Below, piece after piece: positions 1,855 through 63,825 of a DNA stretch of 64,000 nt. The stretch lies in NCBI GenBank assembly GCA_951406725.2, contig OX597836.1, positions 42,594,001 to 42,658,000 of the forward strand, in the 5' to 3' direction. The notes under the pieces were generated by a model. The model was not told where the DNA came from. It worked only from the letters and a program-made list of their open reading frames with translations, and searched no databases. Source of the stretch: Octopus vulgaris (Eukaryota). Numbering within the stretch: the stretch's first letter is position 1; the number at the start of each line of letters is the position of its first letter. Both the position numbers and the translations under genes were made by a program.

Positions 1855-2880
1855 GTCTGTGAAGAATTGAAGGATGAAATCAACCCCGAAAGACTCCACA
1901 TAAAACACATCCATATTTCTAATAATAGCAGTTGGTCTGATATTTCCAACATGTACAATACATTCACCAATTGTTCCAGTATCACCAACACGAAATGGAA
2001 AATTTGTATTTTTGATGATTTCCAGAACATTCAAGAAAGCTTCCTTCCAGGTTTCCAGGAGCTTTGCGACAATGACTTTCCACTGCACAGAAATCTAAAA
2101 ATCATTCTCATATTTAGTGGTGGAAAACCATTTCAATTTGATGGAATCCGGTTTGGAAAGTGTAAAGTGAGTCCATTGTCCATTAAAGATGCCCAGCTTC
2201 TTTTCGGTCGCTGTTCAGACATTGAGACGGATGATGAGAACAAAGAACAAATACACAACATCATCAGATATGCCTGTGGCCTGCCAGGACTTCTTATTTA
2301 CTTTGCAGAAATATTCTCCCAATTTCGTCATAATTTCTCTTTTGATGATATCTACAAAATGATTTGTGATGAAACCAAGCTCAATGACTGGCTGGACGAA
2401 TGTACAATTAACAGACGTAATATTAAGCAAGAAATGGACAAGTACTTTTCTCAACTCTCTCTCGAACAGCAAGAAGCTATCAAAGTGCTTTCATATTTTC
2501 CTGGAAGATTTGGTATTGAGGAAGCTGTTGAAATGACTGGTTCTTCTAGTCAACCAGCTTCCAAGATGCATGTTTTGATGCCACTTGTCGAACAAGGTTT
2601 GATCAGTTCAGATTTAGAATTACAGAATTTCCAAGTACAAGAATTAATACGTGCAATTACCAAACAACAGATTGACAATGTACACAGCAATGATTTGGTA
2701 AAGCTCAAATATACAAACATTATTGGGAAAAGTTTGATGAAGGCTCAAGATATTTATGATAAAGGCCTCATATATGAAGCACTCGGAATAATGAAGAACA
2801 ACTGGGAAAATATTTCGTTTCTGATGAAGAAAGGGATTGAAGCACCCTCAGATGGTAGGACATATGGAGTTTATTATGAG
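1855..2880 (+). CDS. NB-ARC/STAND-TPR gene copy A, coding exon 2 (NTPase core and winged helix, 342 codons)
   Basis: gacag|GTC acceptor and GAG|gtaaga donor, phase 0/0. Motifs: Walker B WKICIFDD, LSIKDAQLLF, ACGLPGLL (GLPL-like), LSYFPGRF, LVEQGLI, FQVQELIR (MHD position). Near-identical copy at 45709-46734. Confidence 0.9.
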
Positions 2881-3535
2881 GTAAGATTTTTTGTCCTTAA
2901 CAACGTGTCTTCTATCTTGTGTTGTAAGTCAGTCTTTCATATGTCGCATTTTAGTTTAACCTGTGTTATATCTTCCGACATCTTTACCATTGGTTCTCAA
3001 TTGAGGGCCATATGGCCCATAAGGGTCCATATAAGAGTCTGCTGTTGTTAAAATATATCAGCAAGAAATTGGTTATACTTCGACAATACACAAAATATTA
3101 CAAAAATTTTTTAATACCATTCTTAATAATAATTACAAAAATATATGATTCTTTTAAACATCGAATGTCTAGGATGGTCCAATAGAGTGGAATAGCAATG
3201 AAAGGGGTCTATAGGTAAAAAACGGTTGAGAAACCCTGCTGTAAGCTCAGCTTAGTGTCTCTTCTGACCCTTCTTACAAATCCTTTCTTGTTACATCTGT
3301 CTTTTATTACATCTTATTTGGGGTTTTTTTCTGTTACATCTTAATCTGCACTCCGGCTACCTTGGACTAAGTGTCACTCAGAATATATTAGGTCAGACTC
3401 ACTGTAGTTCATCAAACTCAGCCTCTTTGACAGTTTCAGTCTATCCTACTTTCTGTCTGTTCAGATCTGAGTCTGACTCAGTATATCACGTATCAGACCT
3501 CATTTGGTTAGTTGATCTGAAACTCAACTGACCTC

Positions 3536-4040
3536 AACTGTCATGGTTTTAGGGTTTGTCAACAATGAAGGACATGTTATGCCTCCTTATTTTTTTCCAT
3601 AAGGCCTTAAAGTTAACTCTGCCACCTACATTGGGGTCCTGGAAATAATTGTTAAACCCTGGATAGACTGTGTATGTAATGGAAAGCCATATGTGTTTCA
3701 GTAAGACTCTGCACTATCACACATGGCTCTAGAAACACAGGAATGGATGGTTGAAAATTTTCACGATCACATTTGGCCTCCGAATTCCCCAGATCTCAAT
3801 CCATTGGATTATTACGTGTGGAGCGTTGTTGAGAGAGAGCTCAATGAACATGCCTATAACGCCAAAGATTCTTTGAAAGCTGCCATAGTCAGAGTCATGT
3901 CCAAAATGAACCAGGACCACTTGATTCGAGCATGTAGGGGATTTAGATCTCATATAGAAGCAGTTGTTGAAGATGAAGGTGGCTTTATTGAATAACATTA
4001 TAGAAAAGAAGGTTCATTTTTATCCTCATAGCATTTTTTG
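3536..4040 (+). mobile_element. Tc1/mariner transposase remnant
   Basis: WPPNSPDLNPLDYYVW motif in ORF 3723-3995, stops upstream, absent from the homologous intron of copy B. Boundaries approximate. Confidence 0.85.
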
Positions 4041-4405
4041 ATAAATAATGTTATCATCTGTTTTTTTCTATAAACATAAATCTGTCCTCAAATTTTTTTA
4101 CTATCAAATTTTTTGTTTTCTAGATATGAAATTGTGACCATGTAAATTTTAAATGTAATTTTTTTCTCTTTATGGGGAAAATATGTGGATATTTTTTTTA
4201 TGACTGTTGTGCAGTGAGTCTAAAAAATTGTGCATAAAGTATATAAAGTATATATACATACACACACACACACACACCGCACATATACATATATATATAT
4301 ATATATATATATATATATATATATATATGTGTGTGTGTGTGTGTGTGTGTGTGTGTGTGTGTGTATGTGTGTAAATATAATATGTGACAATTACTCGGTA
4401 GCCAA

Positions 4406-4466
4406 GATAAAACTCTGAGTTTCGGATGCCGAGGTGGAAATCCACACCACCATCTCTTCAGTTATC
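4406..4466 (-). ncRNA. Minimal type I hammerhead ribozyme motif (mirror copy)
   Basis: Reverse-complement arm of the palindrome with the same core, stems and triplet. Confidence 0.62.
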
Positions 4467-4516
4467 TTGCCATCTGAAAAATGGCCAGATAACTGAAGAG
4501 ATTTTTCCGATGGCCG

Positions 4517-4577
4517 GATAACTGAAGAGATGGTGGTTTGGATTTCCACTTCAGCATCCGAAACTCAGAGTTTTATC
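4517..4577 (+). ncRNA. Minimal type I hammerhead ribozyme motif
   Basis: Stem I gataa/ttatc, core CTGAAGA, stem II gatg..catc, GAAA, palindromic stem III ACTC-a-GAGT, cleavage triplet GUU. Confidence 0.65.
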
Positions 4578-61075: not shown

Positions 61076-61348
61076 CCTTGGAGAATCAGAAACCATTATT
61101 AGTAGCCATAGAAACATAATTGTAAGAGGAGAGAACAGACATGTGGGTTAGAGGCTGGAATGTGCCTATTTCTGGTTGTGACCTGAGGTTTTGCAGTGCA
61201 GAGTAGTAGCACCAATCCCTATTGTGAGTCTTAGGTCATCAAGGACACACCAGTGTAAATGTACTTGGGATATATCAACTGTGGCCTTTAATAACCAGCC
61301 ACTCCTTCACTCTGCCTGTATTCTACTTTTCATGCCGAATAATATGGC

Positions 61349-62790
61349 ATATAGTGGTTGTATACTGTCAATTCAATGTGACAGTCCCGTATGGGAATTA
61401 CACCACCGCTGTTTAGCCCTAGGAAACATCGACGTCTCCTGTTGGCTTTGACGCATTTTCTGTGTCCTTATATTTGCAAAGGGGAGGCATCATCATCATT
61501 CATCATTGTTCGACCGTGGTCGAGACAATGGAATTTACCATGCTACGCCAGACTTCACGGTTCATCATGGCATTACGGAGGTCCTGTTGCTGGATGCCTG
61601 TATCCCTGGAGATTACATCAGGGTAGGAGAGTGTGCGCCCTCTGGTATTGCGAGTAGATGGCTTCCAGAGGAGGAGAGTAGAAATTACCTCTTTTTCAGC
61701 TCTACAACAATGTCCAGCAAACTGGACTCTCTTACCTTTCACAAGAGATGACACAGGTGGTAGTTTCCCATATATTTGCATTTTGGTTGGATGACGCTTC
61801 CACGAGATATTTTGAGCTCTCATAAGGAGGCGAGTGCAAGTTCCATTCAACCACCTCTCAAGCTTCTTTGATAACGTCCAGGTTTCTGAGCCATATAGTA
61901 GAATTGGTTCGATTGTAGCTTTGAAGATTTCAAGTTTGAAGTCTCTACTTAGGTTTGATGACCAGATCTTATGCATGTCATTACATGTCATTACAAAGGG
62001 GAGGCAGTACTGTACTGTATATATTTGATTTATTATTTTTATAATTTGTGTAAATCCAAAACAACACCACGGGGGAATCGACGTAAGCTTCAATAAAAAG
62101 CCGCGATAAGTGAATCGCGATATGGCAAGGGATTACTGTACATACACAACGGACTTCCACACAGTTTCCGCCTATCAAATTTACTTACAAGGCATTGGTC
62201 AGTCCGGGGTTAAAATAGCCATAAAGACACATAGTGGAATAGAACCCGAAACCATGTGGTGGCTGCAAACCAAGCCTCTTAACCACACAGCCAACTCTAC
62301 TTATTGATAATAAAAGTTTGTTGATTAAATATCGGAAAATAAGGAGACGTCGATGTTTCCTAGGGCTAAATGGCGGTGGTGTAATTCTCTTACGGGACTG
62401 TCACATTGAGTTAACGGTATACGACCCCTATATCGCTCTACCACCACTTATGTCTCTTTGAGACATTTAGAAATTCAATATTTCTAATTTCGGTGATCAG
62501 TAAATAAATTTTACTGAAAATATGATATATTTGCAGAGAGTTTGCAGTCATCTCAGCGACCGAGGCAGACTACCCTGGACTGACGACAAGCAATAGACTC
62601 AGAAACATATGTCTTCAGGTGCCTTGTCTCAGCTTGCGGGGGTGATTGCTTCCCCTTTGCAAATACAAGGACACAGAAAATGTGTCAAAGCCGACAGGAG
62701 ACGTCGATGTTTCCTAGGGCTAAATGGCGGTGGTGTAATTCCCTTACGGGACTGTCACATTGAGTTGACAGTATACGACCACTATATCGC
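61349..62790. mobile_element. TIR element (~140-bp TIRs) hosting the RTE fragment
   Basis: 61349-61488 is the reverse complement of 62646-62786. 62342-62490 is a direct duplicate of 62697-62840. Confidence 0.65.
61489..61995 (-). mobile_element. RTE-clade LINE 3' fragment with (GAT)n tail
   Basis: KIWSSNLS...IEPILLYGSETWTL...RLLMRAQNISW...FAGHC in ORF 61503-62093. Confidence 0.85.
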
Positions 62791-63461
62791 TCCACCACCG
62801 CTTATGTCTCTCTGAGACATTTAGAAATTCAATATTTCTAACAAATATGGCATAGTCAGAGAATTAAGTTGCACCCATTTCTTTCTGATGTCCACATACA
62901 ATGTCTAAGTCTCACCACCATACTTCTTCACATGTTATGCATATATTTCCAGCAGTCAGCCCTATACATCACCATCCTCATCGTTTAACATTTGTCTTCT
63001 CTGCATGCATGGGTGGGATGGCTGACAGGGGCCGGCTACTGTGTCTGTTTTGGCAGGACAGAGTTTTTATGACTGGCTGTCCTTCCTAATACCAACCACT
63101 CTGCAGGGTCGACTGAGTGCTTTTCATGTGGCACCAGTACATGCAAGGTCAGTTTTGGCATAGTTTTTACAGCTGAATGCCCTTCCAAATTCCAACCCTT
63201 TACAGTGTGGACTGGATGCTTTTTATGTGGCACCAGCACTGGCAAGGTAACCAAGTAACTTGCAGGACAAGGAATTTTGAAATAAACACCATTTATTACT
63301 GACACAGAAATAACTATTTAAAAATCTATAGCACTTCTTTCTCAATATATTGATGTGGTTGATTTCTCAGAGAGGTTGCCCTCCCTGTAACATACAGGGA
63401 CTTGTTTCACCTGTACAACTCATTTGTATTGTTTACATAATTTCCATTTTTCTTTCAATAG

Positions 63462-63605
63462 ATGGTGCACAAATGGAGCGAGCATTGCATTTTTATAATG
63501 CTTCCCTTGTTGAAAGACTAAAAGTTGTGACTGTAAACCCCAAGAAATCTGTGATAGCATACTGCAATGTAGCAAATGTCCTGTCTCAAAATTGTGGGAA
63601 GCACC
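63462..63605 (+). CDS. Copy B coding exon 7 (TPR)
   Basis: aatag|AT ... CACC|gtacgt, 144 nt, homologous to 13322-13465. Confidence 0.87.
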
Positions 63606-63713
63606 GTACGTATACATTTTTAAGAAAAATGTAAGAAAAATCTGAAATTGACTAAACTGTTACCTGGGTGTTTCTCACTTGTTTTTTTTCCATTTTATTT
63701 GGGTTTTTTCCAG

Positions 63714-63825
63714 ACATGGCCTTGAAACTTTTGTTCAATGCAGAGAAGATCCAAAAAAATAACGGCTGGCTCCATATAAACACTGGTTTGGTGCTCATTC
63801 ACATTGCACAAATATATTTGAGAAT
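63714..63825 (+). CDS. Copy B coding exon 8 (TPR); gene continues beyond the window
   Basis: tccag|AC ... AGAAT|gtaagt, 112 nt, homologous to 14244-14355. Confidence 0.87.

Follow-up and report, generated by a model that had tools for sequence, protein, structure and literature searches.

A 16-gene array of effector-less STAND-TPR proteins, candidate intracellular immune receptors, in Octopus vulgaris

The window analysed here is a 64,000-nucleotide stretch of the Octopus vulgaris genome (assembly GCA_951406725.2, contig OX597836.1, positions 42,594,001 to 42,658,000 of the forward strand), and it holds two closely related genes, hereafter copies A and B, predicted to encode STAND NTPases with TPR repeats. 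A preliminary description, made from the letters alone, had taken the DNA for octopus and proposed two same-strand paralogues with identical exon phases and stop-free exons, about 43.9 kb apart and giving a product of about 857 amino acids (aa). Self-comparison of the window recovered seven paired exons on the + strand, with identical phases, AG/GT ends at all 14 exons and a stop in none of them. Exon 2 shows 94% protein identity between A and B and has 16 matches at E<1e-205 on one contig, which rules out chance. The two exons 2 lie 43,854 bp apart, as proposed, but over the gene the offset ranges from 43.5 to 50.1 kb. With the missing exons placed with the help of database proteins, each complete gene has ten coding exons and GT-AG introns and encodes 857 aa (A) or 856 aa (B), in line with the length first given. 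The octopus origin was also right, as protein P0001, labelled Octopus vulgaris, is 100% identical to copy A exon 2; proteins of O. sinensis, O. bimaculoides and Argonauta are 65-97% identical to it. The parts of the two genes are listed below, with positions in the window unless a contig coordinate is given.

G000:C23:42593668-42593847, + strand, just upstream of the window: copy A (c14) exon 1, Met1 and Walker A
786-841, + strand: decoy, duplicated acceptor and first 56 nt of exon 2, within copy A intron 1
1855-2880, + strand: copy A exon 2, 342 codons; nucleotide-binding domain (NBD) after the P-loop (Walker B ICIFDD), first helical domain (HD1; GLP), winged-helix domain (WHD) and start of the arm
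5394-5550, + strand: copy A exon 3 (arm)
9906-10053, + strand: copy A exon 4 (TPR)
11118-11227, + strand: copy A exon 5 (TPR)
12788-12898, + strand: copy A exon 6 (TPR, conserved Asn)
13322-13465, + strand: copy A exon 7 (TPR, conserved Asn)
14244-14355, + strand: copy A exon 8 (TPR)
16348-16612, + strand: copy A exon 9 (TPR; both conserved His of the putative zinc cap)
19791-20111, + strand: copy A exon 10, coding part (CxxC, stop TAA)
20208, + strand: polyadenylation-signal hexamer (AATAAA/ATTAAA scan), 3' of copy A exon 10
44631-44810, + strand: copy B (c15) exon 1, coding part; Met1, FVGR motif, Walker A GLPYVGKTS
45709-46734, + strand: copy B exon 2 (NBD, HD1, WHD, start of the arm)
51977-52133, + strand: copy B exon 3
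53384-53531, + strand: copy B exon 4
55313-55422, + strand: copy B exon 5; acceptor preceded by (AAT)n, not by a pyrimidine tract
57172-57279, + strand: copy B exon 6
63462-63605, + strand: copy B exon 7
63714-63825, + strand: copy B exon 8
G000:C23:42662050-42662314 and 42665809-42666129, + strand, downstream of the window: copy B exons 9 and 10

Two of these splice sites have unusual surroundings. Window positions 234-841 are a local duplication of 1303-1910 (offset 1,069 bp) and the source of the decoy acceptor at 786, which, if used, would lead to a stop after 25 codons. The copy B exon 5 acceptor lacks a pyrimidine tract because it is abutted by the (AAT)n tail of a fragment resembling a long interspersed nuclear element (LINE; 54496-55312); use of another AG, 8 nt further on, would change the reading frame, and the exon is present in the model of the O. 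sinensis orthologue.

A search of the octopus genome with exon 2 returned 19 matches, 16 of which lie on the window's contig (C23, 42.17-42.70 Mb) at 89-100% identity. We retrieved 664 kb around them and mapped all exons, which gave an array of ~580 kb with 16 genes (c01 to c16), where A and B are copies 14 and 15. Ten genes are on the - strand and six on the + strand, head to head at ~42.48 Mb, so that the tandem array of the preliminary description stands as an array but comprises 16 genes on both strands and not two on one. The other three matches are weak and mark two old paralogues, single genes at G000:C26:35181668-35217400 and G000:C24:10771040-10784650, which have matching exon blocks and an intact P-loop and reach ~25-28% in exon 2. 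An additional weak match lies at C23:25.45 Mb, and a search of the same genome with a distant cuttlefish NTPase (P0189) gave no match.

Half of the copies (8/16) are intact as assembled. A one-base change in the same exon-1 C run affects four others (c01, c02, c06 and c11), a different one-base deletion is found in two further copies, and c04 and c07 are without exon 1 through a deletion apparently common to both. Since the full-length exons of the 15 A- and B-type copies contain no in-frame stop, some of the single-base indels may be assembly errors. The affected run, C6 at exon-1 codons 8-9, is C5 in three copies and C7 in one; these changes may be read errors or mark a slippage hotspot that switches copies off. 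The last exon of c11 is present in tandem duplicate (G000:C23:42514770-42515645).

The assignment of the proteins rests on motifs, profiles and a structure model. A Pfam scan of exon 2 alone yielded nothing meaningful, because the P-loop sits in exon 1. Among seven octopod proteins, TPR_12 exceeded the Pfam cut-off in six, and matches to NB-ARC, AAA and ATPase_2 were all sub-threshold; PF00931 was passed by none (six at 15.1-19.6 bits against a cut-off of 23.5, and one, P-loop-less, without match), and a search of the octopus genome with PF00931 found no match either. The same seven proteins gave no NACHT match (PF05729) at E<=1 and no match to any LRR family, and the modelled solenoid is all-helical; death and HEPN domains are likewise absent. 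An FxGR motif (F22-G24-R25) is conserved in the family. Walker A reads GLPYVGKTS in 14 of the 16 copies, the exceptions being c04 and c07, where exon 1 is missing, and Walker B reads [IF]CIFDD in all 16. The GxP motif is CGLP in 14 copies and CSLP in two, and P204 is kept in 46 of 47 family rows.

The O. sinensis orthologue of copy B was modelled from a 54-row alignment, with a mean predicted local distance difference test (pLDDT) of 87 and a predicted TM-score (pTM) of 0.80; an earlier model from eight rows (pLDDT 59) was discarded. The model comprises an NBD at residues ~20-165, HD1, a WHD extending to ~330, an arm and some eight helical hairpins, closed off at the C-terminus by a short cap. 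Residues 4-19 are disordered, the NBD starts near residue 22, and the nucleotide-binding oligomerisation domain (NOD), with its helical domain and winged-helix-type elements, matches that of CED-4. In a Foldseek search against the Protein Data Bank (PDB), the first match was the archaeal STAND-TPR protein PH0952 (E 9e-11); SAMD9, CED-4, Apaf-1, plant NLRs and Avs3 were also listed at E below 2e-5. Plant resistosomes, APPBP2 and other TPR solenoids were matched too, and whole-chain TM-scores are low (0.2-0.4). Profile matches of the NTPase part are headed by PH0952 (1e-29) and include AfsR (1e-18), Roq1 (7e-13) and At5g66900; the TPR part is closest to kinesin light chain and LGN-type TPRs, and in the Atlas the nearest clusters consist of STAND-TPR proteins from cnidarians, basidiomycetes and bacteria (0.97-0.98). 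The model and these matches indicate that the proteins are STAND NTPases of the NB-ARC class with an arm and a TPR solenoid, much as the preliminary description had it. By analogy, a nucleotide-dependent switch from monomer to oligomer is proposed; a complex prediction with three copies of residues 20-331 scored 0.16 against a mark of 0.32 and is uninformative in both directions.

A profile search of 1.84 billion representatives, with 30 relatives looked up by name, found full-length relatives in limpets, abalone, mud snail, Solemya, scallop, pearl oyster, clam, oyster and cuttlefish, and more distant ones in a crinoid and a hemichordate. The family is thus present in cephalopods, as had been suggested, but is mollusc-wide and not specific to them. 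The NB-ARC cut-off was passed by 6 of 31 scanned relatives. Other octopods have several annotated loci of the family, and the near-consecutive locus tags BaRGS_032487/91/92 suggest a second cluster in the snail Batillaria. Relatives of the C26 gene (P0180) and many other mollusc members carry a long low-complexity C-terminal tail; the C24 and C26 paralogues are candidate helpers.

Two features of the TPR half are conserved across the family. His698, His740 and a CxxC motif (Cys815, Cys818) occur together: of the 34 rows (near-duplicates counted) in which none of the four positions is a gap, 30 have both His, and all 30 of these have both Cys. From this pattern, the four residues are predicted to form a structural zinc site capping the solenoid. 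N568 is retained in 42 of 46 rows and N612 in 41 of 47, and these two Asn resemble the backbone-gripping Asn of peptide-binding TPRs.

Expression was examined in four runs from four studies, probably RNA (the library type was guessed), with splicing judged by GT-AG joints in contigs. The contigs were compared with the 5' half of the sister copy c05 at 90% likeness, with any close paralogue a possible source; they are not assignable to one copy, and their alleles occur in several. The exon 1-2 and exon 2-3 joints of c05, both GT-AG, were found in all four runs, and an upstream exon joined to an acceptor 53 nt before the ATG in three. The family is thus transcribed and spliced; together with the predicted fold and the absence of any one-to-one housekeeping orthologue among the proteins found, the three points on which the preliminary description had staked its case all came out in its favour.

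In the spliced leader of c05, an in-frame TAA precedes Met1 by four codons, and stops close both of the upstream ATGs present in the 259 nt examined. As the same leader occurs in 11 copies, copy A included, the usual product begins ~20 residues before the NBD, without an N-terminal effector. An N-terminal amyloid or death-fold extension was considered and, given the in-frame stop, is rejected for these 11 copies. An upstream coding exon may exist in three copies: B and c09, whose upstream sequence differs and places an acceptor 1 nt before the ATG, and c16, whose 60-nt leader is open. Neither Argonauta nor other molluscs conserve the first 20 residues.

Two further elements were noted near the leader. 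A GGGGAATAAC[C/T]C-like motif (L073:8890-8910), which recurs in nine other copies (e.g. G000:C23:42588045), lies ~60 bp upstream of the point where the leader-exon contig begins. About half of the motif copies fit GGG(W)5CC, which has a regional frequency of 0.07 per kb; the motif was found post hoc, and its presumed likeness to a Rel/Dorsal kappa-B site is offered as a lead only. The leader intron of several copies contains a 19-bp minisatellite of 0.36 to ~2.7 kb (G000:C23 ~42589300-42592000).

The exons of the array have followed different histories. The 16 genes fall into three old lineages: B, c16 and the A type, whose 14 copies differ from one another at only ~7% of synonymous sites. Protein identity between A and c16 is 89% in exon 2, 68% in exon 1 and 49% in exons 6-10 (66% between A and B in exons 6-10), and two Argonauta paralogues show the same gradient (98.8%, 52% and 36%). 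In phylogenetic trees, exon 2 groups by genus, whereas the TPR half pairs c16 with one Argonauta gene (support 91-93). In approximately unbiased (AU) tests on 11 family rows, exon 2 rejected the TPR grouping (p 1e-51), and the TPR half rejected a pairing of the Argonauta genes (p 0.0015). Accordingly, exon 2, which encodes the NTPase core, has been homogenised separately in Octopus and in Argonauta, while the TPR half kept its lineage, a result that presumes correct Argonauta gene models. The homogenised tract of c16 ends within ~100 bp outside exon 2, and homogenisation has spared the short Walker A exon. The ratio of nonsynonymous to synonymous polymorphism (pN/pS) across the 14 A-type copies is 0.49 for residues 1-335, 0.13 for the arm and 0.69 for both the TPR part and the C-terminus; the TPR part is less constrained than residues 1-455 (Fisher p 0.012).

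Known systems share parts of this architecture. The NB-ARC-class NOD of Apaf-1 and CED-4 superimposes on the octopus model (CED-4: root-mean-square deviation ~5 A over ~370 columns), but the octopus proteins have a TPR sensor in place of WD40 repeats and no CARD. SAMD9/9L and bacterial Avs proteins likewise place a STAND module before TPRs (structural matches at E 5e-7 for SAMD9 and 2e-5 for Avs3). Both SAMD9/9L and Avs carry enzymatic effector domains. No effector of this type is present in the octopus proteins, whereas the abstract of PMC5445408 describes one for SAMD9. The order NBD-HD-WHD-arm-TPR is shared with PH0952 and MalT-type STAND proteins (PDB 6mfv). PH0952, however, is a prokaryotic regulator with an N-terminal DNA-binding effector, where the octopus proteins have only ~20 disordered residues, and it is without their C-terminal His-His-CxxC cap. 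According to excerpts of PMC6468293, the arm and TPRs of PH0952/MalT clamp the NBD in the resting monomer until ligand frees the NOD to multimerise; the same excerpts state that STAND proteins generally carry an effector domain, unlike the octopus proteins.

The NB-ARC-TPR NLR-like receptors of fungi, in the parts of PMC4986451 consulted, resemble the octopus family in their NB-ARC-class NOD, TPR sensor, multigene organisation and exchange between members. They are, however, typically tripartite with an N-terminal effector, and show concerted evolution with positive selection on the repeats, whereas in octopus the NTPase exon is homogenised and the repeats are lineage-specific. Animal NACHT-LRR NLRs share the STAND core and the clustered expansion in molluscs, the NACHT genes of the pearl oyster forming a clustered lineage-specific expansion (excerpts of PMC3879445 and PMC9646362); the octopus proteins differ in having no NACHT match, LRR, death or HEPN domain. 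The family therefore resembles the sensor half of an NLR system and lies outside the NLR family as defined by NACHT-LRR or a tripartite layout. NOD-TPR architectures have already been reported from fungi, cnidarians and the pearl oyster (with NACHT there). The octopus family is apparently undescribed so far: full-text literature searches listed no paper that describes it in the title or the opening of the abstract, and six of its LOC identifiers occur in 0 papers, though expanded-family tables in cephalopod genome papers, or subscription papers, may hold it among TPR or uncharacterised expansions.

Taken together, these data lead us to favour, with modest confidence, an array of effector-less STAND-TPR proteins that likely serve as sensor-only intracellular immune receptors. 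At rest, as in the PH0952/MalT model, each protein would be an autoinhibited monomer whose TPR arm clamps the NBD. The TPR groove, with its N568 and N612, would take up a peptide derived from a pathogen or from a guarded host protein, upon which the NOD would open and oligomerise. Because the proteins have no head domain, their output would depend on a helper or adaptor that docks on the oligomer, or would consist in trapping the ligand; NAIP with NLRC4 provides a precedent for such docking. Gene conversion keeps the NTPase cores nearly interchangeable while the TPR halves differ at up to half of their residues, and the outcome would be one switch with several specificities. Going further, molluscs might possess an unrecognised class of effector-less, zinc-capped STAND-TPR immune sensors, perhaps the main NLR-like repertoire of octopods, in which the conversion-kept core lets different TPR sensors co-assemble or share a helper; we advance this only as a speculative extension, itself rather unlikely. 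If true, animals would have an equivalent of the sensor-helper networks of plants, based on NB-ARC-TPR instead of NACHT-LRR.

Several observations weigh against a role as immune sensors. The NLR-like character given to the genes by the preliminary description holds for the STAND-TPR core, but that account missed three absences. There is no effector domain at either end, given the leader stop and a C-terminus made up of the CxxC cap and short helices. The sensor-1 Arg (the TTR/TSR motif) is absent from all octopod copies, which have ILS[SG]G or ILNGG. The WHD His (the MHD latch) is replaced by VQE, VQQ or VQV in 16 of 16 copies; more distant relatives have IHG/IHD-type motifs at this site. Many mollusc relatives have a degenerate Walker B, and several to many of them retain TSR yet lose the Walker B aspartates, which suggests that the family can work without a normal ATPase cycle. 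A scan of 120 of the 241 filtered open reading frames (ORFs) in the flanks gave no Pfam family pointing to a linked effector or partner gene, though short exons would escape it. Within the array, pN/pS is below 1 in every region, and the contrast between residues 1-455 and the TPR part weakens to p 0.058 without single-copy variants. The M1a-M2a site test is significant in three of five regions, exon 2 among them; since 636 of 2016 exon-2 site pairs fail the four-gamete test, this signal is confounded by recombination, and we reject it as evidence of positive selection. Finally, passive conversion through the sole long stretch of homology may fit the exon 2 pattern as well as selection for a shared core.

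An alternative is a non-immune STAND-TPR switch or adaptor (for example in trafficking, cilia, development or neurons) amplified in octopods for dosage or cell-type diversity, a reading we consider possible but on balance doubtful. Purifying selection dominates, the TPR part is nearest to kinesin light chain and LGN-type TPRs, automatic annotation has named some relatives nephrocystin-3-like or kinesin light chain, and two old paralogues with matching exon blocks persist on other contigs; moreover, STAND-TPR regulators are known outside immunity (MalT and PH0952, excerpts of PMC6468293; AfsR). The KLC and NPHP3 names, however, stem from a generic TPR match, and the array shows gains, losses and mosaic exons among its 16 copies. 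Such rapid birth-and-death clustering, with mosaic exons and a TPR half evolving faster than the core, fits receptor families, and is why we prefer an immune sensor to a non-immune switch.

The expansion could also be largely neutral, with three old functional lineages (A, B and c16 types), a recent A-type amplification, passive exon-2 conversion and many copies redundant or decoys. The ~7% synonymous divergence of the 14 A-type copies, the eight of 16 genes defective as assembled (six with single-base indels, two with the apparently shared exon-1 loss) and the restriction of conversion to the long exon would all agree with this. Nevertheless, the full-length exons of the 15 A- and B-type copies are free of in-frame stops, pN/pS values of 0.13-0.69 denote constraint, and RNA contigs hold alleles of several copies, so that we judge it improbable; being silent on the role of the three lineages, it is in any case compatible with the immune-sensor reading. 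That assembly has inflated the copy number, by placing both haplotypes in tandem or as an inverted block, appears very improbable: some pairs are near-identical (c05/c10 in the TPR tree) and four indels in one C run are typical of read error, yet the copies differ in intron length and exon alleles, other octopods have several annotated family loci, and the 66% identity of A and B in exons 6-10 lies far beyond allelic difference.

Molluscan NLR repertoires have been counted via NACHT and LRR domains (excerpts of PMC3879445, PMC9334734 and PMC9646362), and a 16-gene STAND-TPR array below the NB-ARC cut-off would be invisible to counts of this kind. A NACHT search of the octopus genome found at least two matches over the cut-off, both off C23:

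G000:C17:46057963-46058481: NACHT match, open frame of 1333 aa
G000:C19:45022485-45022808: NACHT match, open frame of 781 aa

If immune, the array would be a candidate locus for intracellular pathogen sensing, of interest to octopus aquaculture and comparative immunology, and it raises the question of how a STAND protein signals without effector domain, sensor-1 Arg and MHD His. Independently of function, the separate homogenisation of the NTPase exon in Octopus and Argonauta offers a clear natural case of domain-restricted concerted evolution.

Repetitive elements account for other features of the region. Between the head-to-head promoters of c10 and c11 lies a 330-aa ORF (L037:2999-3988, - strand) without Pfam match, which we take to be a fragment of a Penelope-type retroelement. 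A retrotransposon with long terminal repeats (LTRs) occupies window positions 20321-26120, inserted ~200 bp past the copy A stop; it has stop-broken matches to protease, RNase H and integrase, an order we presume to be that typical of Ty3/gypsy elements, and its LTRs of ~590 bp are 97-99% identical, the 3' one being split by another repeat. Positions 29950-31930 consist of ~2 kb of near-pure (AAT/TAG)n microsatellite with a GC content of 3%.

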